Source: Burkholderiales bacterium
GTDB taxonomy: Bacteria; Pseudomonadota; Gammaproteobacteria; Burkholderiales; JAEUOS01
Direction of reading: 5' to 3'
DNA: 48,588 nucleotides
Assembly: GCA_036271855.1 (NCBI GenBank)
Contig: DATAZV010000384.1
Location: forward strand, 1-48,588
The notes under the pieces were generated by a model. That model had not been told where the DNA came from, did not search any database, and saw nothing but the letters and a program-made list of their open reading frames with translations. The position numbers and the translations under genes were made by a program. Positions 4,767 through 40,971 of this stretch are shown piece by piece (positions within the stretch are counted from its first letter, which is position 1; the number at the start of each line of letters is the position of its first letter).

Positions 4767-4906
4767 TCGCGTCTCCCGCGGCCGCGCATGGATAACCGCG
4801 CATGCAGGGTGGCCGCATTGGTTCTTGCGTCCAATCTTACACGCTGCGGCGGTGGCATGCCCGCCGCGCCGCCGGGTGGAAAGCCAGGAGCAGCGCCGGC
4901 GCGGCC

Positions 4907-5683
4907 CTAATGCGCCTGCCGTGCCGCGCGCTGCGGAAACACCACGATGCACAGCACGATGAAGGCCAGCAGCAAGGCGGTGGCGGTGTAGCGGCTGAAG
5001 GCCAGGCCGCCGTTGGCCAGCGGCTTGTCGAGCAGGTCGCCGAGCACTGCGCCCAGTGGGCGGGTGAGCACGAAGGCGAGCCAGAACAGCAGGGTGCGCG
5101 ACAGGCGGGTCCAGAAATAGGCGGCGGCCACCAGCGCCAGCAGGCTGCCGAAGACGATGATGCCCCCGCCATAGCCCATGCCCTGGGTATCGGCGGTCCA
5201 GTCGCCAAGCGCCGTGCCGAGCGTCTGCGAGAACATGATGGTGACCCAGTAGAACATCTCGGCGCGCGGCGTGCTGACGCTGGCCACCGAAATGCTGCCC
5301 AGGGTGCGGTGCCAGAAAAACAGCGAGGCCGCCAGCAGCGCCAGCAGCAGCGCCGAGCCGCCGGCGTAGCCGATGCCCAGCGAGCGGTCGGCGAAGTCCG
5401 CCAGGGTGGTGCCCACCGTGGTGGAGGCGAGGATGGTGGTCCAGTAGAGCAGCGGGTGAAAGCGCCTGGCGGCGATTTGCGCGCCGACGGCGACAAAAAA
5501 GAACACCGCGAAAATCGCGGTGGAGAGCAGGTAACCGAGGTTGAGCGACATCGACAGCGCGTCGCCGCCGGTCTCGCCCAGGGTGGTGGCGGCGATCTTG
5601 ATCAGCCAGAACAGCCAGGTGACTTCGGGGACTTTGCTGACGCGGACGGAGTCGGAGTCGGAGTCGGAGTCAAAGTCGGTCAT
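4907..5683 (-). CDS. Conserved integral membrane protein with internal duplication (COG4705-like, from memory)
   Basis: Start at MTDFDSDSDSDS (ATG at 5683). The blocks WLFWLIKIAATTLGETGGDALS and FYWVTIMFSQTLGTALGDWTAD look like two copies of one membrane module. G/C third-position bias is high. Confidence 0.7.
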   Translation of the reverse strand: MTDFDSDSDSDSVRVSKVPEVTWLFWLIKIAATTLGETGGDALSMSLNLGYLLSTAIFAVFFFVAVGAQIAARRFHPLLYWTTILASTTVGTTLADFADRSLGIGYAGGSALLLALLAASLFFWHRTLGSISVASVSTPRAEMFYWVTIMFSQTLGTALGDWTADTQGMGYGGGIIVFGSLLALVAAAYFWTRLSRTLLFWLAFVLTRPLGAVLGDLLDKPLANGGLAFSRYTATALLLAFIVLCIVVFPQRAARQAH

Positions 5684-12097: not shown

Positions 12098-12883
12098 CTA
12101 CAGCAAGCCCTTCGCCATGCCGCCATCCACATTGATCGCCTGCCCCACCAGGTAGGAAGCCTGGCGCGACATCATGAAGCAGGCCACGGCGGCGATTTCG
12201 CCGGGCTGGGCGAAGCGCTTGAGCGGAATGTCGGCGGCGAAGCGCTGCACCACCTGCTCTTCCGTCAGCCCTTCCCTGGCGTTGAAATCCGCCGCGCGGT
12301 CTTTCCACAACTTGGTCCAGGTGCGCCCGGGGCAGATGGCGTTGACACGCACGCCTTCGGGCGCGAGTTCATCCGCCAATGTTTTCGCCAGCGCCAAAAT
12401 GCCGGCCTTGTGCACGTTCGACACCACCTGCTGGGGGTGCAGCATTTTCGCGCCGGCGCCGCCGAAAAACAGCACGCGCGCATCGCGGCCTTTTTTCAGC
12501 GCCGGCAGCAGGCCGCGCAGCAGGCGCACCGGCCCCAGCACGTTGAAGGTGTAGTTCTCCATCCACTTCGCGTCGGTGAGTTCGCCGAAGGGCGCGCGGT
12601 AGCTGCCGCCGGTGGCCAGCACCAGGCCGTCGAGGGGCTGGTTGTCCCAGTCGACGATCAGCGCTTCGGTGGCGGCCTCGCTCAATACGTCGATGATGCG
12701 GGTTTCCACCGCGTGGCCGGTGGCGGCGCTGATGCGCTTGGCGGCCGCCTCGATGGCCGCGGCGTTGCGCGAGGCGATGGTGACGCGCGCGCCTTCGTGC
12801 GAAAGCGCCAGCGCGGTTTCATAGCCTATGCCTTCGCTGGCGCCGATCACCAGGATGCGGTCGCCTTCGATGCCGAGATTCAT
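12098..12883 (-). CDS. Short-chain dehydrogenase/reductase (SDR) family oxidoreductase
   Basis: N-terminal VIGASEGIGYETA (TGxxxGxG-type Rossmann motif), a central NVHKAGILALAKTLADEL region where K replaces the usual catalytic Y, and the C-terminal GQAINVDGG. Confidence 0.85.
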   Translation of the reverse strand: MNLGIEGDRILVIGASEGIGYETALALSHEGARVTIASRNAAAIEAAAKRISAATGHAVETRIIDVLSEAATEALIVDWDNQPLDGLVLATGGSYRAPFGELTDAKWMENYTFNVLGPVRLLRGLLPALKKGRDARVLFFGGAGAKMLHPQQVVSNVHKAGILALAKTLADELAPEGVRVNAICPGRTWTKLWKDRAADFNAREGLTEEQVVQRFAADIPLKRFAQPGEIAAVACFMMSRQASYLVGQAINVDGGMAKGLL

Positions 12884-12967
12884 GGGGTGCCCTTCGTGCG
12901 CTGTGCGAAAGGGCGAATTCTAGTCCGGCGGCGCGCCGGCGATGCCTGATCGGCCGGATGCGCCTGC

Positions 12968-13186
12968 TTAAGGGCTGCCGTCCCCGCCTTGGTCCGACAC
13001 TACCAGCCCGGTGACGCTGTAGGCCCCTTCGCCGGTGCCGGCCGGATTGCGCACCACCTGGTGCAGTGCGTGGCAATGGATGCAGGCGCTGGAAAGGGCG
13101 AGCTTATGCGGGTCGACGATCACGCTCAAGGTGGAGGTGAGGCCGCAGTCCGGGTTCAGGCACTTGAACAACTGGAGCAGGGCCAT
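12968..13186 (-). CDS. Small four-cysteine protein (72 aa), possible zinc-ribbon-like fold
   Basis: ATG at 13186 with GGAGAC 9 nt upstream. Very high G/C third-position bias. CLNPDC...(20 aa)...CIHC gives a CX4C/CX2C arrangement. It is the first clearly coding ORF downstream of the sigma-54 promoter at 13502-13517. Confidence 0.65.
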   Translation of the reverse strand: MALLQLFKCLNPDCGLTSTLSVIVDPHKLALSSACIHCHALHQVVRNPAGTGEGAYSVTGLVVSDQGGDGSP

Positions 13187-13443
13187 TACGCGAGGTCTCC
13201 GCTCAGGCCGCCCAGGCCGCCCAGACCGCGCAGACCGCGCAGACCGCGCAGACCGCGCAGACCGCGCAGACCGCGCAGACCGCGCAGACCGCGCAGACCG
13301 CGCAGACCGCTAAGACCGCTAAGACCGCTAAGACCCGCAGCGCCCCGGCGCGCGCGCATGGGCGCGCCGCGTGCGGCAGCAGCGCCATTTGCCTGGTCGG
13401 GGGGGCTTGGGGGAAGCCCGCGATCACCGCCGTTCATGCCCAC
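13186..13443 (-). CDS. Candidate repeat peptide, (Gly-Leu-X)15 frame; an alternative (Cys-Ala-Val)9 frame is at 13203..13388
   Basis: A GTG at 13443 lies 7 nt after AAGGA, and the stop overlaps the next ATG as TAATG. Unit variants are synonymous for Gly and Leu in this frame. The alternative frame (MALLPHAARPCARAGALRVLAVLAVLAVCAVCAV...WAAWAA) has better G/C third-position bias. The track ORF start at 13518 lies inside the promoter and is unlikely. Confidence 0.35.
   Translation of the reverse strand: MGMNGGDRGLPPSPPDQANGAAAARGAPMRARRGAAGLSGLSGLSGLRGLRGLRGLRGLRGLRGLRGLRGLRGLGGLGGLSGDLA
13201..13335. repeat. 15-copy 9-bp tandem repeat (core gcgcagacc x9, flanked by 3+3 variant units)
   Basis: Counted directly: gctcaggcc, gcccaggcc, gcccagacc, then nine perfect gcgcagacc, then three gctaagacc. 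The unit length is a multiple of 3, so copy-number change keeps any frame. Confidence 0.95.
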
Positions 13444-13501
13444 AACAACATCCTTGCTCAATTGCCCCCCGGGATTGCAATACCGCTTGTGGCAGCAGTC
13501 T

Positions 13502-13517
13502 TGCAGGAGGCATGCCA
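13502..13517 (-). promoter_or_regulatory. Sigma-54 (-24/-12) promoter
   Basis: The minus strand reads TGGCATGCCTCCTGCA. The GG and GC doublets are spaced exactly as in the consensus TGGCACG-N4-TTGCW. Predicted transcription start is near 13491, reading toward lower coordinates. Confidence 0.75.
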
Positions 13518-13534
13518 AAAATAGAAGGGTTAAA

Positions 13535-13547
13535 AATCAATAGTTTG
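13535..13547. promoter_or_regulatory. IHF-binding site candidate
   Basis: AATCAATAGTTTG matches WATCAA-N4-TTR exactly. It is embedded in an A/T-rich patch midway (about -50) between the UAS palindrome and the -24/-12 element. Confidence 0.55.
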
Positions 13548-13568
13548 TCTCCGTGAACTGGCTCGAAT

Positions 13569-13607
13569 TGTCCTTTTTGCGGACACCCCCTGTCCGCAAA
13601 AGAGACA
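13569..13607. promoter_or_regulatory. Upstream activator sequence candidate: 39-bp palindrome with two TGTC-N9-GACA units
   Basis: tgtcctttttgcggaca-ccccc-tgtccgcaaaagagaca. The inner 11-bp arms are perfect. It is centred about 97 bp upstream of the predicted start and begins 8 nt after the stop codon of the adjacent NtrC-family activator gene. Confidence 0.6.
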
Positions 13608-13614
13608 ACGCCCT

Positions 13615-14937
13615 TTAGTGCTCGATGCCGTATTGCTTGAGCTTGACGTAGAGCAACTGGCGGCGGATGCCGAGCAGGCGCGCGGCTTTGGCGCGATTGC
13701 CGCCCGCTTGTTGCAGGGCCTGGTTGATCATCAGCTTTTCCAGCCGGGTGACGGCGGTGTGCAGGTCGCTGTCGAGCAGGCCGCGCAATTCGTCGGAGCG
13801 CGAAGAGGTGAGCTGGATTTCGCCGGCGTCGATCACCGCGCCGCGCACCAGCACCGAGAGGCGCTCCATCAGGTTTTTCAGCTCGCGCACATTGCCCGGC
13901 CAGTCGTGGCCGGCGAGCACGTGCGCGGCGCCCGGGGTGAGCACCTTGGGAGCCTCGCTGGCGCGGCCGAGAAAGTGGCGCGCCAGCGGGATCAGGTCCG
14001 GCAGGCGCTCGCGCAGCGGCGGCACGTGGATCGGCACCACGTTCAGGCGGTAGTACAGGTCTTCGCGAAAGCGCCCGGCGCGCACCGCTTCGACCAGGTC
14101 GCGGTTGGTGGCGGCGATCACCCGCACGTCCACCGCCACCGGGGCGCTGGCGCCCACCGGCAGCACTTCGCGCTCCTGCAGCACGCGCAAAATCTTCGCC
14201 TGCATCGGCATGCCCATGTCGCCGATTTCATCCAGGAACAGGCTGCCGCCGTGGGCGGCGCGAAAGCAGCCGGCGGTGTCGGAAACCGCGCCGGTATAAG
14301 CGCCCTTGACGTGGCCGAACAGTTCGCTCTCCAGCAGGTCGGCGGGAATAGCCGCGCAATTGACGGCGACGCAGGCGCGGCTGGCGCGCAGGCTTTTTTC
14401 GTGCAGCACGCGCGCCACCAGTTCCTTGCCGGTGCCGGTCTCCCCGGTGATGAGTACGGTGGCATCGCTGACGGCGGCCATGCCGATGCGCTTTTGCACT
14501 TCGCGCATCGACGGGCTCTCGCCGATCAGCGCGTCGGTGAGCCCCGGCGCGGGCGCGGCCGGCGCCACCCCCTTGGAGCGCAGGGCGCGGTCCACCACCG
14601 TGAGCACGTCGTTGCGCCCGACCGGCTTGGAGAGATGGTCGAAGGCGCCCAGGCGCATTGCGTCGATGGTGTTTTCGCTCGACGAATAGGCCGTCATGAT
14701 GACCACCGGCAATTGCGCGAAGCGGGTCTGCGCCTTGATGCCGCGCAGCGCGTCCAGCCCGCCCATGCCGGGCATGCGCAGGTCGAGGAACACCAGGTCC
14801 TGCTCGGAAGATTGCAGGGCGCGCAGCGCGGCCTCGGCGTTGTGCGCCTCGGCGGCGAGGTGGCCGGCGCCGGCCAGCGTTTCGCGCAGGCCCTCGCGAA
14901 AGGCGGCGTCGTCGTCGGCAATCAGGATACGTGCCAC
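13615..14937 (-). CDS. NtrC-family sigma-54-dependent response regulator (REC + AAA+ + Fis-type HTH)
   Basis: A GTG at 14937 gives VARILIADDD...FLDLRMPGMGG (receiver). Then GETGTGKELVAR (Walker A), GHVKGAYTGA (GAFTGA-type sigma-54 contact loop), LFLDEIG (Walker B) and the C-terminal NRAKAARLLGIRRQLLYVKLKQYGI HTH. The track start at 15252 is an over-extension into the kinase gene. Confidence 0.9.
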   Translation of the reverse strand: MARILIADDDAAFREGLRETLAGAGHLAAEAHNAEAALRALQSSEQDLVFLDLRMPGMGGLDALRGIKAQTRFAQLPVVIMTAYSSSENTIDAMRLGAFDHLSKPVGRNDVLTVVDRALRSKGVAPAAPAPGLTDALIGESPSMREVQKRIGMAAVSDATVLITGETGTGKELVARVLHEKSLRASRACVAVNCAAIPADLLESELFGHVKGAYTGAVSDTAGCFRAAHGGSLFLDEIGDMGMPMQAKILRVLQEREVLPVGASAPVAVDVRVIAATNRDLVEAVRAGRFREDLYYRLNVVPIHVPPLRERLPDLIPLARHFLGRASEAPKVLTPGAAHVLAGHDWPGNVRELKNLMERLSVLVRGAVIDAGEIQLTSSRSDELRGLLDSDLHTAVTRLEKLMINQALQQAGGNRAKAARLLGIRRQLLYVKLKQYGIEH

Positions 14938-15959
14938 GGAATCTCCAGCTCGAAACGCGCACCGATGGCCACCGGCACGTTGTGCAGGGTGCCGCCGTGC
15001 GCCACGGCGACGGCGCGCGCCAGGGTCAGCCCGAGGCCGACGCCGTCTTTGCGCCCGGTGATGAAGGGCTCGAAAATCTGCTCGCGCACCGAGGGGTCGA
15101 TGCCCGCGCCTTCGTCCTGCACGTGGATGCGCAGGCTGCCGGCGTCGGCGGCCACGCCCAGCTCGATGCGCCCGGCGCGCGGGCTGTGGGCGATGGCGTT
15201 GAGCAGCAGGTTTTCCACCGCGCGGGCCAGGTGGTCGGGGTCGAAGGTCCACGACTCCGGCACGCCCTGGGGAATGAATTCGAGCATCACGCCGGCGGCG
15301 TCGGCCGGCGGCTGCACGCTGGCCAGGCGCTCGCGCATCCAGGCGTCCAGCGGCACGCGGCCGGGGGAGAGTTTCAGCGCCTGCGTCAGGCTCAGCAGGC
15401 CGGTGAGCAGGCGCTCAAGGCGCGCCACCTGGTTCAAGGTGAAGTCCATCGCCGCGCGCTCGGCGCCGGGCGGGGCGTGCAGCGCGTTTTCGACTTTCAG
15501 GCGCACCGCCGCCAGCGGGTTGCGGATCTCGTGCGCCAGTCCGGAGGCCAGGCGCCCGAGGGTGGCCATGCGCTCGGACTGCGCCAGCTTTTGCGACAGT
15601 TCCTCGTTGGCCGCGTGCTCGCTGCGCACGCGCCCGTTGAAGTCGTTCAGCGCGGCGACGATGCGGTCCAGCTCGGCGTCGCCGGAAAGCTCGAAGTCGC
15701 GCAACTGCACCAGGGTGTGGGCCGAGAGGGTGCGCTCGATGCCGCCCAAGGCCCCGCGCCAGGTGGCGAACAGGCGCGCCAGCCACAGGCTCATCAGCAG
15801 CGTCAGCGCCAGCAGAAGCATCAACGCGGCCATCATCAGCGTGTAGGCGGTGCCGCCGCTTTCGCGGGACAGGCCGAACATCAGGGCGCAAATCAGCAGG
15901 CAGGGCAAAGCCGCCCCGGCCCAGAGAATTGCGTTGCGTGTCCACAGTGCCTGCTTCAT
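14922..15959 (-). CDS. Sensor histidine kinase, intramembrane-sensing type (2 TM with ~9-aa loop, HisKA, HATPase_c)
   Basis: MKQALWTRN... has two TM helices separated only by SRESGGTAY. H-box LAHEIRNPL, N-box LLLNAIAHS, G-boxes DEGAGI and GVGLGL. The 3' end overlaps the regulator start by 16 nt. The start is uncertain (15959 chosen; no SD). Confidence 0.85.
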   Translation of the reverse strand: MKQALWTRNAILWAGAALPCLLICALMFGLSRESGGTAYTLMMAALMLLLALTLLMSLWLARLFATWRGALGGIERTLSAHTLVQLRDFELSGDAELDRIVAALNDFNGRVRSEHAANEELSQKLAQSERMATLGRLASGLAHEIRNPLAAVRLKVENALHAPPGAERAAMDFTLNQVARLERLLTGLLSLTQALKLSPGRVPLDAWMRERLASVQPPADAAGVMLEFIPQGVPESWTFDPDHLARAVENLLLNAIAHSPRAGRIELGVAADAGSLRIHVQDEGAGIDPSVREQIFEPFITGRKDGVGLGLTLARAVAVAHGGTLHNVPVAIGARFELEIPWHVS

Positions 15960-16282
15960 CCAGGGTAAGGGTCCGGCTGGCGCGATTGAGAGTTGTTGAT
16001 ATTGTTGATGTGCAAAGAAGCGCCTCGCGCACGGCACCCCTTTGAGCTCCTGCGAACCACAGCGGAAGCCTGCCCACTACCAGCGACGCCTTTGCCCCGG
16101 CGCCAATTGGAGGAATTTATTACCTCGCCCCGCCGCCGTATGTCAGGCGCATGCCTACACGGCGGCGACGCTTGCTTGGCGACGCAAAATTGTAAAGGCG
16201 GGGCCGGGAGGGTTCAAAGCGCCGGGCCGCAATCGGCGCCGGTGCGCGGCCGGATGTGGCGAAAAACATGCATAAGTGTTCG

Positions 16283-16336
16283 TTTTTATGGCGCTTTTGG
16301 GTCATTTTTGGCGATTTCCGGGCATTTATCCGTTTT
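16283..16336. other. Six helically phased T-tracts (candidate intrinsically curved DNA)
   Basis: T3-T5 runs start at 16283, 16295, 16305, 16315, 16325 and 16333 (spacing 12, 10, 10, 10, 8). They are bracketed by the inverted repeat tggcgaaaaac / gttttcgcca, in the 510-bp divergent intergenic region. Confidence 0.5.
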
Positions 16337-16471
16337 CGCCAGCCACTTCACGGCAACGGGCAGCATGACGCCGGCGGACGCGGCGTCGGACGCCGCCGAC
16401 ACGCAACTCGGCGCAATGCTGGCTGAGGCGCTGCCTGCCGCATCGCATAGTGACCCCACCAGCACAAAGGG

Positions 16472-16831
16472 ATGAACAACATGAACGGGATAAACAACAT
16501 GAACGAACAGATGCCCACCCAAGCCAGCCCAGTCGCCAACCCGCCCACGACGATGGTGCGCTTCTCGCTCACCCTGGACGACTACATCGCCGAACTCAAC
16601 CGCCGCCTGGAAGCCCATGCGGACTACCGTGCAGGCATGCGCGTGGTGCGCGACCCGCTGGGCGCGGCCATCGGCGGGCGCGGCGGCTATACCTTCGAAT
16701 GGCCCAAGCCGCAGGACGATGACCCGCAAGCCTGGTTCGACACCCGCAACGTGGTGGACGATGTCGAGTTGCAGATGCGCGAGCACTATGTGCTGGAGGA
16801 GATGGCGGATTACGTGGAGCAGGCGGCGTAG
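16472..16831 (+). CDS. Hypothetical protein (~115-119 aa)
   Basis: Open frame with good G/C third-position bias: ...MVRFSLTLDDYIAELNRRLEAHADYRAGMRVVRDPLG... Several in-frame ATGs (16472, 16481, 16499, 16511) fall within a short aacaacatgaacg duplication, so the start is uncertain. Confidence 0.5.
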   Translation: MNNMNGINNMNEQMPTQASPVANPPTTMVRFSLTLDDYIAELNRRLEAHADYRAGMRVVRDPLGAAIGGRGGYTFEWPKPQDDDPQAWFDTRNVVDDVELQMREHYVLEEMADYVEQAA

Positions 16832-18464: not shown

Positions 18465-19211
18465 CTACTTGCCGGCGAGCTGGCGCTTGGCGCGCTCGGC
18501 CGCGTAGGCCTTGGCGGCCTTGATCAGCGCGGCGTCGCCCGAGGCCATGGCGTCCTTGAGCGACTTCTGGCCGTATTCCATGTTGTTCATCAGCTTGCCC
18601 AGGTCCAGGGTGCTGCCGAACTTCTTTTTATATAGCGACTGAAAGTCCGACAGCAGCGATACCTCGGCAGCCGAGGGGTGGCTGGAGTGCCGATGATGTT
18701 CGGCGGCGGGCGCTGGTGCTGCCGGGGGCGGCGCCGCCTGGGGTGGCTGCGCCTTCGGCGGCTGGGCTTGCGGTGGCTGCGCCTTGGGCGGCTGCGCTTG
18801 CGATGGCTGGGCCTGCGGCGGCTGCGCCTTGGGTGGCTGCGCTTGCGATGACTCCGCCTGCAGCGGCTCCAGTTGCAGCGGCGCCATCGGTGGCGGGTCC
18901 GTCTGCAAGGGCTCCAGTTGCAGCTCCTGCGGTGCCCCGGCATCGCCGCTTTCCAGCAGTTTCAGCTTGCGGGTTTTTTCCAGGGCCTGCATCGGCGTCA
19001 GGGTGATGGACTCGATCGCTTCCTGCCGCTCGACCTGCAGGTGGGCGGCCATGTTGCGCAGGGTCTGGTTTTCGCTTCGCAGGGCGCGTTCGAAAGCCTG
19101 GAAGGCATAAAGATCGTCGGCGATGAATTCATCGACGTCGAAGGGTTCTTTAAAGACACCGACATACAGCGCGTGAAAGCGCATGTAGCGTTCTTCAATG
19201 GAGTCGGACAT
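18465..19211 (-). CDS. Hypothetical protein with a central Pro/Gln/Ala-rich repeat (248 aa)
   Basis: Start MSDSIEERYMRFHALYVG (ATG at 19211). The middle is LQLEPLQ x2 followed by QAQPPKAQPPQAQPSQAQPPKAQPPQAQPPKAQPPQA, encoded by 15-bp tandem units at about 18735-18850. The C-terminus is helical and Lys-rich. No signal peptide. Confidence 0.6.
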   Translation of the reverse strand: MSDSIEERYMRFHALYVGVFKEPFDVDEFIADDLYAFQAFERALRSENQTLRNMAAHLQVERQEAIESITLTPMQALEKTRKLKLLESGDAGAPQELQLEPLQTDPPPMAPLQLEPLQAESSQAQPPKAQPPQAQPSQAQPPKAQPPQAQPPKAQPPQAAPPPAAPAPAAEHHRHSSHPSAAEVSLLSDFQSLYKKKFGSTLDLGKLMNNMEYGQKSLKDAMASGDAALIKAAKAYAAERAKRQLAGK

Positions 19212-19532
19212 GGTGTGGCGATCTTGCGTGCAGTGCGGCCGGCAAAGGGGCAATGTACAACAGACGGGGCGGCGGTAACAGCGGAAACGGCAGTCTCGCC
19301 GCGAACGGAAGGCAAGGCCGCGTGCTGCTGACTGTGCAATGGCTTGCCCGGGCCAATGGTAGGCAGCGGCAGGCGCCGTGTCCAGTGCCGCGTATCGCCA
19401 TTTAAAGCAAAGTAACAATCTGGACCAGCCATGCCGGAATCAAGAATCAACATTGTTCCGGCGTGGCGCGCAGGTTCATCCGCCCGATTGCCCGGTCCCC
19501 TTGTCTTCAATCGACCCGTTCAATCGACCCGC

Positions 19533-21950
19533 TCAGTTGACTCGCCCGGTCAGTTGAAACGCCGCCCAGAAAAACGGGTGCGGAAAGTTGGCGCGGGTGC
19601 TGAGCTGGGCCTGGCGCAGGGCTTCGTCCTTGTTCATCGTCGGCAGGTTGCGGTAGAACGCCGTCATCAGTTCGCCGGTGGCGCGGTCGTCCACGCTCCA
19701 CAGGCTGGCGACAATCGAGCGGCTGCCGGCGTAGAGAAAGCCGCGCGTCAGGCCCACCACGTCGTCGCCGCTGTTGATCGCGCCCAGGCCGGTTTCGCAG
19801 GCGGAGAGGGTGACGAGGTCGGTGTCCAGGCGGGTCGAATAGAGCTCGCCCGCGGTGAGCAGGCCGGCGTCCGGCGTATCGCCGGCGAGGAACAGGCCGG
19901 AGTGCAAGGGGTTGGCGCTTTCGAATTTGCCGTGGGTGGCAAAGTGCAGGCGCGAGAAGCCGCCGGCGGCGCTGAGAAAGTTGGCCTTGCTGGCTTCCTT
20001 GCGCACCAGCAGCCGCGAGGCGGGCACCATCGCGGCCAGGGTGCGGGCCTCGCCTTCGGCGAATTTGAGGTCGTAATCGGCGCTGCCCAGGTCGGGGTTG
20101 CCGAACACCAGCAGTTGCGCTTGGCCGCCGCCTTGCGCGGCGCGCAGGTATTTGAGCACGCTGGCGCTGGGCAGGTAGTGCATGCGGTACGCATCGATCA
20201 GCAGGCCGCCGTCGGGCTGTTGCAGCACCGCGAAGGGCAGGTAGTGCAGCGCGCCGTGGCCCACCACCACCACGTTCTTCGAGCTGATCAGGGGGGCGAG
20301 CGGCGCCCATAGCTGCTCATGCAGCGCGCGCGCGGGCGCCTGCCAGGCGGCGGAGTTGACGTCTTCGAGGGCCTTGCGCAGGCCGGCGATCTTGTCAGCC
20401 AGGCCGGCGCCCTCGAGTTTCACGCCTTGCAGCTTGTCGCGGCTGACCACGAAAGCGACCAGTTCATCGCCCTGGTAATAATATTCGACCAGGGTTTCGT
20501 CGGCCGCCAGCAGCGCCTGGATCTCCGGTGTCGGCACCGCGCCCACTGTCACCAGCGAAGAAAACTCCGGCGCCGCCGCGCGCACTTCCTGGCGCGCGGC
20601 GATCAGGCCGCGCACTTCGGAGCGGTCGGCGCGGTCGGCTAAGGGGGCGCCGGGTGCGTCGGTGGGCTGCGTCGATTTGCCGCCCTCGGGCGGCGGCACC
20701 GGCAGGTCCGGCGCGTCCAGCCGCTGCAGCAACTGGTTCATCCGCTCCGGCGCCAGGCCCTGGACGGCGAAATTGTTCTTGCCCGAGAGCATGTCCACCA
20801 ACGCGCGCGACTTCGAGCGCTCGACGTAATCAAAAGCCTCCGCGCTCTTGCCCTGCGCCAGCAGCAGCGCCACCAGGCGCGCATACAGCCCCTGCTTGTC
20901 GCCGACAAAGCCGATCTTGCTGCCTTCGGTGTTGATGCTGGAGCGCTGCAGCTCGACCATCTCCACCGCTTTGGCGTAATAGTCCGCCGCCGCGTCCAGC
21001 TGCTGCTCGGCCTGGGCCAGGCGCCCGCGCTCGTACAGCGCCACCCAGTAGAGGTCGCCCATGTCGCGGATGCGCGGCGAGGCCAGCGCCTCGTCGAAGG
21101 TGCTCTTCGCCTCGGCGGTCTTGCCGGTCTCGGCCAGCGCCTTGCCGCGCATCACCAGGCGCGGGATTTCGAGGATCGAAGTCGTGCTGTCGCCGCGATA
21201 GGCATAAGGGCCCAGGCTGTTGACGAAGGAAACCATCACCTTCATCGAGGCCGGGCTGGCGGGGATGTACTTCAGCGCGTCCTGGTAGCGGCCCATCGCC
21301 ATGTAGACCTGGGCCAGCGCGTTGTCCTTGATCCAGGTCCACATGCGCAGGCCGATGATCGGGCGCGAGACGTCTTCCAGTTGCAGGGCCAGGGCCGCCG
21401 CCTCGGCGGGGTGGCCGGCGCGGCTGGCCGCCAGGGTCTGCACTTCGAGCGCGGCCATGCGATAGCGCGCGGTGGGGTAGAGCGAGGTGCCGCCGCGCTC
21501 CGGAATTTTCGCCAGGATCACCAGCGCCTGGGCGGCGGCCGCGCTCGCCTTCGCGTAATCCCCCAGCTCGAACCAGGCGCGCGCGCGCAGCACCTGCGGC
21601 AAGGGCCGCGCGTCCGATGAGGAGATGAACATCACGTACTGGTCGAGGGCGATATCCACATCGCCCGCCTGCGCAATCGCCTCCAGCCGGTCGGCGCAGG
21701 CGAACAGTTTTTCATACTGCTTGAGCTTGCCGTAGGCGATGCACAGGTAGCCCAGCACGCTGGCCTCGGCCTTGGCGCCGCGCGCCAGCTTGGCTTCAGC
21801 CTCGCTTTTCAGGTCGGCGAAGCGGCCGGCAGTTTCAAGGTAGGTCAGGCTTTCTTCGGCCCGCGCCGGGCCGGCCCAGGCGAGCGACGCCGCCACGCAG
21901 GCGCACAGGCCCAAGGCGCGCAGGGCGGCTGATTTCGAGCGTTGCATCAT
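19533..21950 (-). CDS. Signal-peptide-bearing TPR-repeat CHAT-domain (caspase-like) protease, 805 aa
   Basis: Signal peptide ...SLAWAGPARA|EES. The N-terminal ~400 aa are TPR-like helical repeats. The C-terminal CHAT domain has the His/Cys dyad context RLHFATHG and LVTLSACETG and ends ...HPFFWAAFQLTG. Confidence 0.9.
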   Translation of the reverse strand: MMQRSKSAALRALGLCACVAASLAWAGPARAEESLTYLETAGRFADLKSEAEAKLARGAKAEASVLGYLCIAYGKLKQYEKLFACADRLEAIAQAGDVDIALDQYVMFISSSDARPLPQVLRARAWFELGDYAKASAAAAQALVILAKIPERGGTSLYPTARYRMAALEVQTLAASRAGHPAEAAALALQLEDVSRPIIGLRMWTWIKDNALAQVYMAMGRYQDALKYIPASPASMKVMVSFVNSLGPYAYRGDSTTSILEIPRLVMRGKALAETGKTAEAKSTFDEALASPRIRDMGDLYWVALYERGRLAQAEQQLDAAADYYAKAVEMVELQRSSINTEGSKIGFVGDKQGLYARLVALLLAQGKSAEAFDYVERSKSRALVDMLSGKNNFAVQGLAPERMNQLLQRLDAPDLPVPPPEGGKSTQPTDAPGAPLADRADRSEVRGLIAARQEVRAAAPEFSSLVTVGAVPTPEIQALLAADETLVEYYYQGDELVAFVVSRDKLQGVKLEGAGLADKIAGLRKALEDVNSAAWQAPARALHEQLWAPLAPLISSKNVVVVGHGALHYLPFAVLQQPDGGLLIDAYRMHYLPSASVLKYLRAAQGGGQAQLLVFGNPDLGSADYDLKFAEGEARTLAAMVPASRLLVRKEASKANFLSAAGGFSRLHFATHGKFESANPLHSGLFLAGDTPDAGLLTAGELYSTRLDTDLVTLSACETGLGAINSGDDVVGLTRGFLYAGSRSIVASLWSVDDRATGELMTAFYRNLPTMNKDEALRQAQLSTRANFPHPFFWAAFQLTGRVN

Positions 21951-39804: not shown

Positions 39805-39808
<4 letters not shown>

Positions 39809-40602
39809 GCAGGCGCCGCCGGTGTGGGTGTCGCGGGCGCGGACGCGGGCGATGTCGCAGGCGTTGCGGGCGCCGATGCCTGCGCAGCCGCTGTTGCCTG
39901 GTGTGCGGCGCCGAAGGCCGCCACGTGCGCTTCGATCAGCGTGCGGTCGAACAGCCCGGCGGGGCGCTCGCGGCTGGCCAGGCATTCGACGAAGGGCTGG
40001 AAGCGCTCCAGGCTCACTGTATACAGGCGCATCAGTTCGACGATGGGCTCGGCGTGGTCGTCCACCCGCATGTCCAGCGCCGGGTAGTCCCGCCCGTTGT
40101 AGATCAGCAGCGCGGCGGCCTGCTTGCCGCGCTTGTCGCCGCCGGCCGCCTCACCCGCGGCCAGCGCCGCCAGCAGGCGCAGCGCAAACGGCTGCGCGGC
40201 GTTTGCATCATAGGCTTGCGCGGTGGCCTCGACCACCTGCGGCCCGGCCAGCATATTGCCCGCAACGGAGTAGCCCGCGCGCAGCAGGTGGCCGCTCCAG
40301 GGCACGCACTCTGCGCCGGTGTGCGCGGCGCCGCGCCCCTGCGCGTCGATCAGGTGCACTTGCCGGTGCGCGCTGCCGGCGTCGCCCGCCAGCAGTTCGG
40401 CCAGCAGCCCGGCCGGCTCGCGCCTGGCCGCCATGCCCTCCAGCGCCGGCGCCGCCAGCAAGGGGTTGAGCAGGGCCTGGGTGGAAAGCGCGCCGACCGC
40501 GCTGCGGGCGTGCGGGCACAGGGCGCCCACCGCGAAAAACCGGCTCGCGATGGCCACCCCAAAGGCGCCCGAAGCATCCCGCGCGACGATCGACCAGGTC
40601 AT
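39805..40602 (-). CDS. DUF1028-family (Ntn-hydrolase-like) protein, first gene of the peptide-transport cluster
   Basis: The N-terminal MTWSIVARDASGAFGVAIASRFFAVGALCPH... matches the MT[FW]SIVARD start I recall for DUF1028. The Ala/Pro/Thr-rich C-terminal tail overlaps the next gene's start. Confidence 0.8.
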
Positions 40603-40660
40603 ACCGCTTCCTCAAAAAAGGCAGCGCGATGCGCCGCCCCGATGTCGCTTTGCCGACCCT

Positions 40661-40748
40661 GTTTTGCAAACCCGTTTGCAAACCCGTTTGCAACCCCGCT
40701 TTGCAACCCCGCTTTGCAACCCCGCTTTGCAACTCCGCTTTGCAACTC
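40661..40748. repeat. 7-copy 12/13-bp tandem array with a TTTGCAA core
   Basis: gttttgcaaaccc gtttgcaaaccc gtttgcaacccc gctttgcaacccc gctttgcaacccc gctttgcaactcc gctttgcaactc. It lies 59-146 bp upstream of the DUF1028 start, in a 369-bp divergent intergenic region. Confidence 0.9.
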
Positions 40749-40971
40749 GCATGCCGCCCGGCGCCTGCCCCGCGCACGGCTCGCCGCGACTGCGGGTCAG
40801 TCTATCAAACCGGGGATGGTTGCGAAACCGCTGAAATGCGGAGCGCAGGCTGCCGTGCCGCATCAGCGAGAGATTTGTGGGCCGGCCGGCGCTGGCTGCC
40901 ATGATGACCGGTTCGATTCGCCGGGCGCCGGCCTGCGCAGCGCCGCCCGGCGTGGTATCTTTGACGCAAGT

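Follow-up and report, generated by a model that had tools for sequence, protein, structure and literature searches.

Here, we describe a compact and very rare 3.5-kb regulatory cassette in a 48,588-nucleotide metagenomic contig of a Burkholderiales bacterium (contig DATAZV010000384.1 of assembly GCA_036271855.1; the whole stretch is called the window below). The genes of the cassette lie on the minus strand. A histidine kinase gene (15959..14922; 345 aa; Pfam HisKA and HATPase_c) comes first, and its stop codon is overlapped by 16 nt by the GTG start of an NtrC-family activator gene (14937..13615; 440 aa; Pfam Response_reg, Sigma54_activat, AAA_lid_14 and HTH_8). Beyond the activator lie two predicted activator-binding sites of the form TGTCY-N7-GGACA (TGTCTCTTTTGCGGACA and TGTCCGCAAAAAGGACA, 13569..13607, minus strand, 22 bp centre to centre), an exact match to the IHF consensus (WATCAANNNNTTR/AATCAATAGTTTG, 13535-13547, plus strand) and, 51 nt downstream of the proximal site, a -24/-12 promoter element with GG-N10-GC spacing (TGGCATGCCTCCTGCA, TGGCAT-N5-CTGCA, 13517-13502, minus strand). 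The leader that follows includes a conserved 5' block and a 9-bp tandem repeat, and leads into a 72-aa open reading frame (ORF) with a CX4C...CX2C arrangement of four cysteines and two histidines (13186..12968; hereafter the Cys ORF). A first-pass annotation, made by a model from the nucleotide sequence alone, had drawn attention to this region, and every feature that it listed was found at, or within a few bases of, the position it gave. We propose, as the best explanation of what is found here and in related loci, a sigma-54 two-component cassette with a single conserved target in its vicinity, a zinc-ribbon-like Cys4/His2 protein of ~70 residues that would be cytoplasmic.

The two binding sites together form a 41-bp palindrome (arms at 13568-13585 and 13591-13608, 18 nt each and 89% complementary, with a 5-nt spacer) that begins 6 nt after the TAA of the activator gene. 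The palindrome had been annotated as 39 bp long and 8 nt from the stop, a trivial difference. In the 48.6-kb window, the IHF consensus has one exact match (0.23 expected; at least one match in 19 of 100 shuffled sequences), TGGCAYG-N4-YTGCW matches solely at the cassette promoter (0.13 expected), and the sole matches to TGTC-N9-GACA are the two arms of the palindrome (0.41 expected). Singly, these motifs are weak evidence; their joint, ordered location and their conservation in other loci are far beyond chance. No frameshift or stop codon interrupts any part of the cassette.

The activator, two TGTCY-N7-GGACA sites, a sigma-54 promoter and the Cys ORF are linked in four other metagenomic lineages, with Cys-ORF identity down to 48%. 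The loci L001, L003 and L004 share one order: activator 3' end, two TGTC-N9-GACA sites, WATCAA-N4-TTR, TGGCAYG-N4-CTGCW, leader, Cys ORF and a gene for an SDR oxidoreductase, with the IHF element WATCAA-N4-TTR retained in all three though its N4 varies. The most informative comparison is L049. Its Cys ORF shares no more than 48% identity with that of the window, its leader bears no relation to the other leaders, and a convergent GGDEF gene stands downstream instead of the SDR gene; nonetheless, the end of the activator gene, a pair of sites spaced 22 bp apart and the promoter TGGCACGTGTTCTGCA are still present. From proximal site to promoter, the gap measures 51 nt in the window, in L001 and in L003, and is slightly wider in L004 (~52 nt) and L049 (53 nt).

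The motif also extends to relatives of the regulators that have other targets, since homologous kinase/activator pairs carry the consensus TGTCCGC-N3-GCGGACA before sigma-54 promoters. The Nitrosospira gap measures 50 nt, with a DUF2490 gene in the target operon, and in the metagenome contig L034 the same motif stands before the sigma-54 promoter of an MFS/DASS/DMT transporter operon. When GTDB genomes were scanned for the pattern, the double site turned up right after activator genes 50-56% identical to that of the window, in Paraburkholderia bryophila, in P. phenazinium and at a third locus, and in all three Paraburkholderia loci a sigma-54 promoter lies 51-53 nt past it. We assign the palindrome to the activator of the cassette because the motif is conserved next to homologous regulators, and on this comparison its role as the binding site of this activator appears well supported. 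The combination of NtrC-family activator, cognate -24/-12 promoter and upstream sites is kept in eight other loci, and comparison supports the regulator-to-target wiring that the first-pass annotation had read from a single locus. Another sequence close to the sigma-54 consensus (one mismatch), TGGCAGCAGTCTTGCA at 13490-13505 on the plus strand, shares TGCA with the -12 element and falls within the stretch of leader that is invariant; L004 does not keep it, and it is therefore probably a coincidence.

The Cys ORF had been judged a well-supported gene, and its composition and conservation bear this out. Its GC content by codon position (0.63/0.47/0.86) is of the coding type seen in the other genes of the window (~0.67/0.48/0.88), and it has a Shine-Dalgarno sequence of its own (GGAG in the window, and GGAG, GGAGG or AGGGA over the window, L001 and L004) 9 nt upstream of the start codon. 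A search of 5.8 billion proteins gave three relatives, a profile search of 1.84 billion cluster representatives gave three further small ones, and a profile built from seven sequences brought the family to a total of nine clusters. Seven members, down to 32% identity, share the invariant residues F7, C9, N11, P12, C14, S18, C35, H37, C38, H42, V58 and G60, so that the Cys and His residues are kept in different genomic contexts and the pairs C9-X4-C14 and C35-X2-C38 form the two-pair arrangement of a zinc ribbon. The protein has no hydrophobic or transmembrane (TM) segment and, by inspection, no obvious signal peptide. AlphaFold2, given the seven sequences, predicts an all-beta protein of six strands (pLDDT 78, pTM 0.62), for which the weak Foldseek matches belong almost exclusively to zinc ribbons (RPB9, the Sec23 zinc finger, ELOF1, eIF5), the best of those in the PDB having a non-significant E of 1.8. 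No match was found in Pfam, NCBIfam, PADLOC or PHROGs, and the best profile hit among PDB sequences (E = 0.14) was not significant. We regard "zinc-ribbon-like" as a reasonable but unproven description of the predicted fold.

By these searches the Cys proteins appear to be a tiny but genuine family matching no described one; as the first-pass annotation had stated, neither product downstream of the promoter belongs to a described family. A search of the literature likewise brought up nothing of relevance. A scan of GTDB genomes for the Cys ORF found none, and a scan of metagenome contigs added one partial locus only, L047. The protein is fast-evolving outside its invariant blocks: the window and L001 versions differ at 19 non-synonymous and 11 synonymous positions in 71 codons. 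Two further profile-search matches, P0127 and P0129 (660 and 711 aa), are repetitive proteins that match over a short beta-hairpin stretch, and were judged spurious. Among the distant relatives, P0126 in L040 follows genes for MFS_1 and DMT_6 transporters, and directly after it, at 1130-1205, lies an array of about eight GGCATG-type hexamers. The most distant relative, P0128 in L038, begins 2 nt after the gene for a 100-aa protein with a C-terminal TM anchor, on a contig where every gene is flanked by copies of a ~60-nt element (CCTTCCATCGAGCGGAC...GCCGCTCATGTCAAACGTTAGGC).

The activator has the full domain set of the NtrC family, that is, a REC domain, an AAA+ domain with a GAYTGA loop and a Fis-type helix-turn-helix (Pfam scores of 94, 235 and 48 bits for Response_reg, Sigma54_activat and HTH_8). 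It is 96.6% identical to its L001 orthologue, from which it differs by 46 synonymous and 13 non-synonymous changes in 352 codons. None of the NCBIfam equivalog cut-offs was reached, either by the activator (NtrC, AtoC, ZraR, GlrR, PrsR; the best, TIGR01818, at 440 against 558.6 bits) or by the kinase (AtoS, ZraS, PrsK; the best, AtoS, at 136 against 646 bits). We place the system in the NtrC-type two-component/sigma-54 class, as a member without a name of its own whose small zinc-ribbon-like target is new.

The kinase had been called an intramembrane-type sensor, and it does have two TM helices (residues 10-28 and 40-58 by hydropathy) joined by a loop of ~11 residues, too short for a sensor domain, before a HAMP-like linker, HisKA (HEIRNPL) and HATPase_c. 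This architecture is not shared with its orthologues, and no membrane partner of the ABC-transporter or LiaF type accompanies it. The nearest orthologue, P0006 (locus L032), has 481 aa, is 86% identical and carries a periplasmic domain of 136 residues. In the alignment, residues 1-35 of the two proteins correspond, a "GT" follows in the window kinase, and its residues 38-345 then match P0006 174-481, so that the window copy has a net loss of 136 residues, or 408 nt, in frame, at a junction with 4 nt of microhomology (CGGC) only. About 105 relatives of 440-560 aa share the periplasmic domain (~140 residues), with the motifs GVEGGxW, AYAFPTxxG, KxDxPxxE and AWTMxR. The short loop therefore reflects a lineage-specific in-frame deletion, and an intramembrane-sensing nature of the system is not supported: on this comparison the window kinase is best read as a deletion derivative without the sensor domain of its family, a change that appears recent and confined to this genome. 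Its catalytic motifs (HEIRNPL, N box and G boxes) are intact. With the sensor domain lost, we infer that the kinase would be blind to its signal and locked on or off.

The periplasmic domain is itself of interest. In the kinase family P0006-P0124 (alignment A6) it has invariant GG-W, Y, P, G and W residues, and it is spread over ~100 clusters, among them ones from Nitrosospira, Paraburkholderia, Herbaspirillum and Pseudomonas. It has no match in sequence searches of Pfam or the PDB, and appears to be an undescribed sensor domain. Five short homologues (P0018, P0028, P0051, P0087, P0103) were considered as further sensor-less variants and rejected; they begin at the internal Met of WTMxR and lack TM1, and are therefore truncated gene calls and not parallels. 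A search of GTDB genomes for close orthologues of the kinase yielded nothing above 35% identity. Near the kinase gene there is neither an ABC transporter nor a LiaF-like partner; its neighbours are the SDR gene, a hydrolase gene and genes for proteins without an assigned role. A consensus scan gave a weak candidate for a constitutive promoter of the kinase and activator genes, a sigma-70-like TTGAAC-17-TACAAT at 16189..16217 on the minus strand (9 of 12 positions).

A close relative shows the cassette to be a discrete unit. In the metagenome-assembled genome locus L042, the SDR and hydrolase are 92% and 87% identical to those of the window, and the kinase, activator and Cys ORF are absent: orf119 is followed directly by the SDR promoter region, and the whole 3.5-kb cassette is missing. 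The description of the region as a self-contained module is strengthened by this presence/absence polymorphism. Homology between the window and L042 resumes ~25 nt upstream of a TAGAAT box that precedes the SDR gene and is conserved in loci with and without the cassette, which places one boundary of the indel between the Cys-ORF stop and the TAGAAT box. As the first 27 residues of orf119 are without counterpart in L042, the right-hand boundary falls within 16260-16505. That interval, upstream of the kinase gene, is an AT-richer patch (GC ~0.59), and an 18-bp direct repeat encoding NNMN repeats lies at the start of orf119. We looked for flanking repeats of mobile elements around the cassette and found no convincing pair.

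The SDR gene (12883..12098) follows the Cys ORF in the window, L001/L002, L003, L004 and L047, and as no terminator separates the two genes, read-through is possible. In L042 and L043, however, the SDR gene stands behind the same TAGAAT box without the cassette. Taken together with L049, these loci make the SDR gene an ancestral neighbour and not a conserved target. An imperfect hairpin (GCCCTTTCG...CGAAGGGC) covers the SDR Shine-Dalgarno sequence at 12884-12925 and in the homologous stretches of L001 and L003, with one pair changed from C-G to T-A in L001; it may serve in translational control of the SDR gene or as a protein-binding site. Elsewhere in the window, a 317-aa ORF (18465-19418, minus strand) with (Q/K)AQPP-type repeats, encoded by a 15/45-bp repeat at 18727-18868, has no family match and adjoins the gene for an 805-aa TPR and CHAT-domain protein (19533-21950, minus strand).

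The leader of the window cassette is ~300 nt long, and its first ~75 nt (conserved block 13425..13501, minus strand, with AAGGA at 13455-13451 and GTG at 13443-13441) are nearly invariant among the window, L001 and L003 and absent from the more distant L049. The 9-bp tandem repeat (13199-13340, minus strand; 15.9 copies, 94% matches, TRF score 200) consists of three units of GCGGTCTTA, nine to ten of GCGGTCTGC and then variant units. It is absent from all five other loci in which the stretch before the Cys ORF can be seen, L001, L003, L004 and L049 among them. At the homologous position, just upstream of the Cys-ORF Shine-Dalgarno sequence, L001 has a two-unit proto-repeat, GGCTTGAGC CGCCTGAGC, and by this comparison the array appears to be a lineage-specific slippage expansion from two to ~16 copies and not a conserved functional part. 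Folding of the leader RNA gave z = -0.15, an alignment fold of the conserved 5' block had neither compensatory pairs nor covariation, and an Rfam scan of 12500-14000 gave nothing above chance; with no covariation and no folding signal, we do not claim an RNA element.

Arrays of this kind are found in other leaders as well. In the window, a 13-bp tandem repeat (TTTGCAACCCCGC, 7.8 copies, 40646-40756) occupies the leader of the minus-strand gene 40602..39805, starting right after a sigma-54-like CGGCATGCGAGTTGCA and repeating the -12 box TTGCA in every unit. In L042, which lacks the cassette, ~8 copies of a 13-bp repeat (CACAGTCCCGCCT, 4876-4975) lie between the TAGAAT box and the SDR start codon. 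The recurrence of leader arrays in the lineage suggests a general tendency to slippage and not a dedicated function.

Two reading frames through the array could nonetheless be thought to encode a peptide, and the first-pass annotation had the promoter driving one. The (Gly-Leu-Arg/Ser)n frame is an 85-codon possible ORF of doubtful coding status (13186..13443, minus strand), and the same frame is open in the window, L001, L003 and L004 after a conserved AAGGA-N7-GTG. Its stop overlaps the Cys-ORF start in three of these four loci (TAATG in two, including the window, and ATGA in one) and lies close to it in the fourth (TAG followed by 12 nt). The codon-position GC content of the leader is flat (~0.7/0.7/0.7) in L001, L003 and L004, against ~0.6/0.5/0.87 for real genes, and the substitutions look neutral (9 synonymous and 17 non-synonymous in 47 codons, with flat per-position counts in most pairs). 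Open frames of ~45 codons are common at ~70% GC, and L049 has no equivalent ORF. The frame scores 33.6 bits against the Pfam Collagen model (cut-off 27.2) and also matches phage "collagen-like tail" proteins, matches that reflect Gly-X-Y periodicity alone. We considered a collagen-like repeat protein and rejected it, given the missing repeat in relatives, the missing coding GC pattern and the neutral-looking substitutions. The (Ala-Val-Cys)n frame (ORF 13427..13203, reading ...AVCAVCAVC...) surpasses the other two repeat frames in third-position GC, at 0.88. Since the array is absent in all relatives, this peptide is absent there too, and its start and stop are not conserved (an 18-aa ORF in L001, a frame that runs on in L003, and ATT instead of ATG in L004). 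The idea of a repeat peptide as a product of the circuit is not sustained by these comparisons.

What else might explain the cassette? One option, in keeping with the first-pass annotation, is that the kinase is a true intramembrane sensor that detects a membrane signal or a small partner, with the repeat encoding a hydrophobic, Cys-rich (Ala-Val-Cys)n peptide of the same circuit. The two closely linked TM helices and the favourable third-position GC of the AVC frame would fit, but the short loop comes from a deletion in this lineage only while the orthologues keep a periplasmic domain, the repeat and its peptide are missing from relatives, its start candidates and stop are not conserved, and no ABC transporter or LiaF-like partner is nearby; we consider this explanation very improbable, and find no support for a membrane-embedded peptide linked to the kinase. 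The other option that involves the leader deserves more weight, though it is still unlikely: the leader ORF would be translated and coupled through TAATG to the Cys ORF, the repeat number of its (Gly-Leu-Arg)n peptide here tuning downstream expression. The conserved AAGGA and GTG, the frame open in four loci, the overlapping or nearly abutting stop and start, the frame-preserving 9-bp period and the above-threshold Collagen score speak in its favour. Set against these are the flat codon-position GC and neutral-looking substitutions, the ease with which frames of this length arise at such a GC content, the lack of such an ORF in L049, the Gly-X-Y origin of the Collagen and phage-tail matches, and the Shine-Dalgarno sequence that the Cys ORF has for itself in the window, L001 and L004.

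It could also be that the cassette is decaying, so that sensor loss and repeat expansion mark an early stage of pseudogenisation and the module no longer functions. Two unusual lineage-specific changes within one 3.5-kb unit, and a close relative that lost or never had the cassette, are what such decay might leave; yet the deletion, exactly in frame, spares both TM helices, no catalytic or regulatory motif is damaged, the Cys ORF retains every invariant residue, and the cassette is free of frameshifts and stops. We judge this rather unlikely. That the SDR oxidoreductase is the real regulated cargo, reached by read-through with the Cys ORF as a mere upstream passenger, is improbable: the two genes are adjacent in the window, L001/L002, L003, L004 and L047 with no intrinsic terminator between them, but L049 keeps activator, sites, promoter and Cys ORF in front of a convergent GGDEF gene, the SDR gene with its TAGAAT box stands alone in L042 and L043, and the indel boundary separates the Cys-ORF stop from that box. 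Finally, the kinase deletion, the repeat length or both might be artefacts of metagenome assembly, as the window is a single metagenomic contig, its proteins were seen on this one 48,588-bp contig, and tandem arrays near read length are hard to assemble. With just 4 nt of microhomology (CGGC) at the junction and no repeat beside it on which an assembly might collapse, a deletion of exactly 408 nt in frame, and an array that is internally ordered (three TTA units, a TGC run and graded variants), we regard artefacts as quite improbable.

The nearest known parallels differ from the cassette in instructive ways. Like the ZraS/ZraR-ZraP system of Enterobacteria, the cassette combines a kinase, an NtrC-family activator, one adjacent sigma-54 promoter and a small protein with metal-ligand residues, and, of the named models, ZraS and ZraR score among the best for its kinase core and activator, although far below their cut-offs (132 against 479 bits and 376 against 760 bits). 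The small metal-binding target of that system, ZraP, is helical and periplasmic, and feeds back on its own system. The cassette product, in contrast, is predicted to be all-beta and shows no obvious signal peptide, and its gene lies downstream on the same strand and is not divergent. The GlrK/GlrR (QseE/QseF)-glmY system offers another likeness, with TGTC-Nx-GACA repeats for the activator, an IHF site, a sigma-54 promoter and a single short transcript beside the regulators. The GlrR site is TGTC-N10-GACA, whereas the cassette sites have N9 with the extended core TGTCC-N7-GGACA, the GlrR model scores 345 against 763 bits, and, unlike glmY, a small RNA, the product here is a protein (there is no Rfam match), with no gene for a QseG-like lipoprotein present.

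Kinases of the BceS/LiaS intramembrane-sensing type share the two TM helices and very short loop with the window copy only, and differ in that the architecture here is a derived deletion on a HisKA/NtrB-like core, with no partner ABC transporter or LiaF nearby and a sigma-54 activator instead of an OmpR/NarL-type regulator as output. Closer in kind are the cpxA* alleles, periplasmic in-frame deletions of a sensor kinase known as laboratory mutants, in which the deletions are small and the kinases typically signal-blind and often constitutively active. As in these, periplasmic residues are lost in frame while TM helices and catalytic core stay intact; unlike these, the window kinase has lost a whole 136-residue domain, and in a natural genome. 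The pairs of Paraburkholderia bryophila LMG 23644 and P. phenazinium LMG 2247 resemble the cassette in the activator (50-53% identical), the two TGTCC-N7-GGACA sites past its stop and the promoter 51-53 nt further on, and differ in the target, a two-gene operon for a ~270-aa secreted protein and a 188-aa protein, neither with a family match, and no Cys ORF.

How, then, might the cassette work? In the orthologous systems, the kinase would sense a periplasmic signal through its ~140-residue domain and control phosphorylation of the activator, as family knowledge suggests. The activator would bind the two TGTCY-N7-GGACA sites directly past its own stop codon, a step suggested by the conservation of the motif beside homologous regulators. 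With IHF bending the 51-nt spacer, it would then remodel sigma-54 holoenzyme at TGGCAT-N5-CTGCA; the motifs for this are observed, and the function is presumed from them. The transcript would consist of a leader of ~140-330 nt, the Shine-Dalgarno sequence and the Cys ORF, and the two Cys knuckles of the mini-protein probably bind a single metal ion. On this conserved design two recent changes appear to be overlaid in the present genome, the 408-nt deletion in the kinase gene and the repeat expansion that lengthens the leader. The architecture of the cassette, its wiring and the derived status of the two changes we consider likely. What the mini-protein does is far more tentative: its size, its fold class and the regulation dedicated to it lead us to guess, with low confidence, at a small adaptor or regulator acting on a protein or nucleic-acid partner, possibly as feedback on the system. 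In its boldest form, the proposal would be of an undescribed sigma-54 two-component family with a new periplasmic sensor, for which the mini-protein serves as dedicated output and possibly as feedback partner, and which was rewired in this genome by sensor deletion and by a copy-variable 9-bp repeat giving a translated, TAATG-coupled (Gly-Leu-Arg)n leader peptide that tunes output; this we think improbable.

Several observations weigh against our proposal of a sigma-54 cassette dedicated to a zinc-ribbon-like protein. The full-length kinase is seen in one relative only, L032, whose contig stops before the target. All relatives of the Cys ORF sit on contigs of at most 2.2 kb. The distant relatives in L038, L039 and L040 are not beside a two-component system, and so the Cys protein can work outside the circuit. 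The fold matches are not significant, so that the name zinc ribbon draws on Cys spacing and a predicted beta-hairpin. In principle, faulty assembly of a metagenomic contig could also account for the kinase deletion and for the number of repeat copies.

Our findings do not overturn current understanding, and their value is that of a well-delimited lead, in which the two most unusual-looking features are derived and peculiar to this genome. As a clean and minimal case, the cassette allows the activator sites, their spacing and a single target to be read from the sequence and checked by comparison. It defines a very rare family of Cys4/His2 mini-proteins, a fairly widespread periplasmic sensor domain without a relative in Pfam or the PDB, and a recognition motif, TGTCC-N7-GGACA, with a fixed offset of 51-53 nt from the promoter. 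The homologues in Paraburkholderia offer a culturable route to this family of regulators. The window kinase, in turn, as a natural deletion of a whole sensor domain, would provide a ready test of how a sensor-less kinase behaves in vivo.

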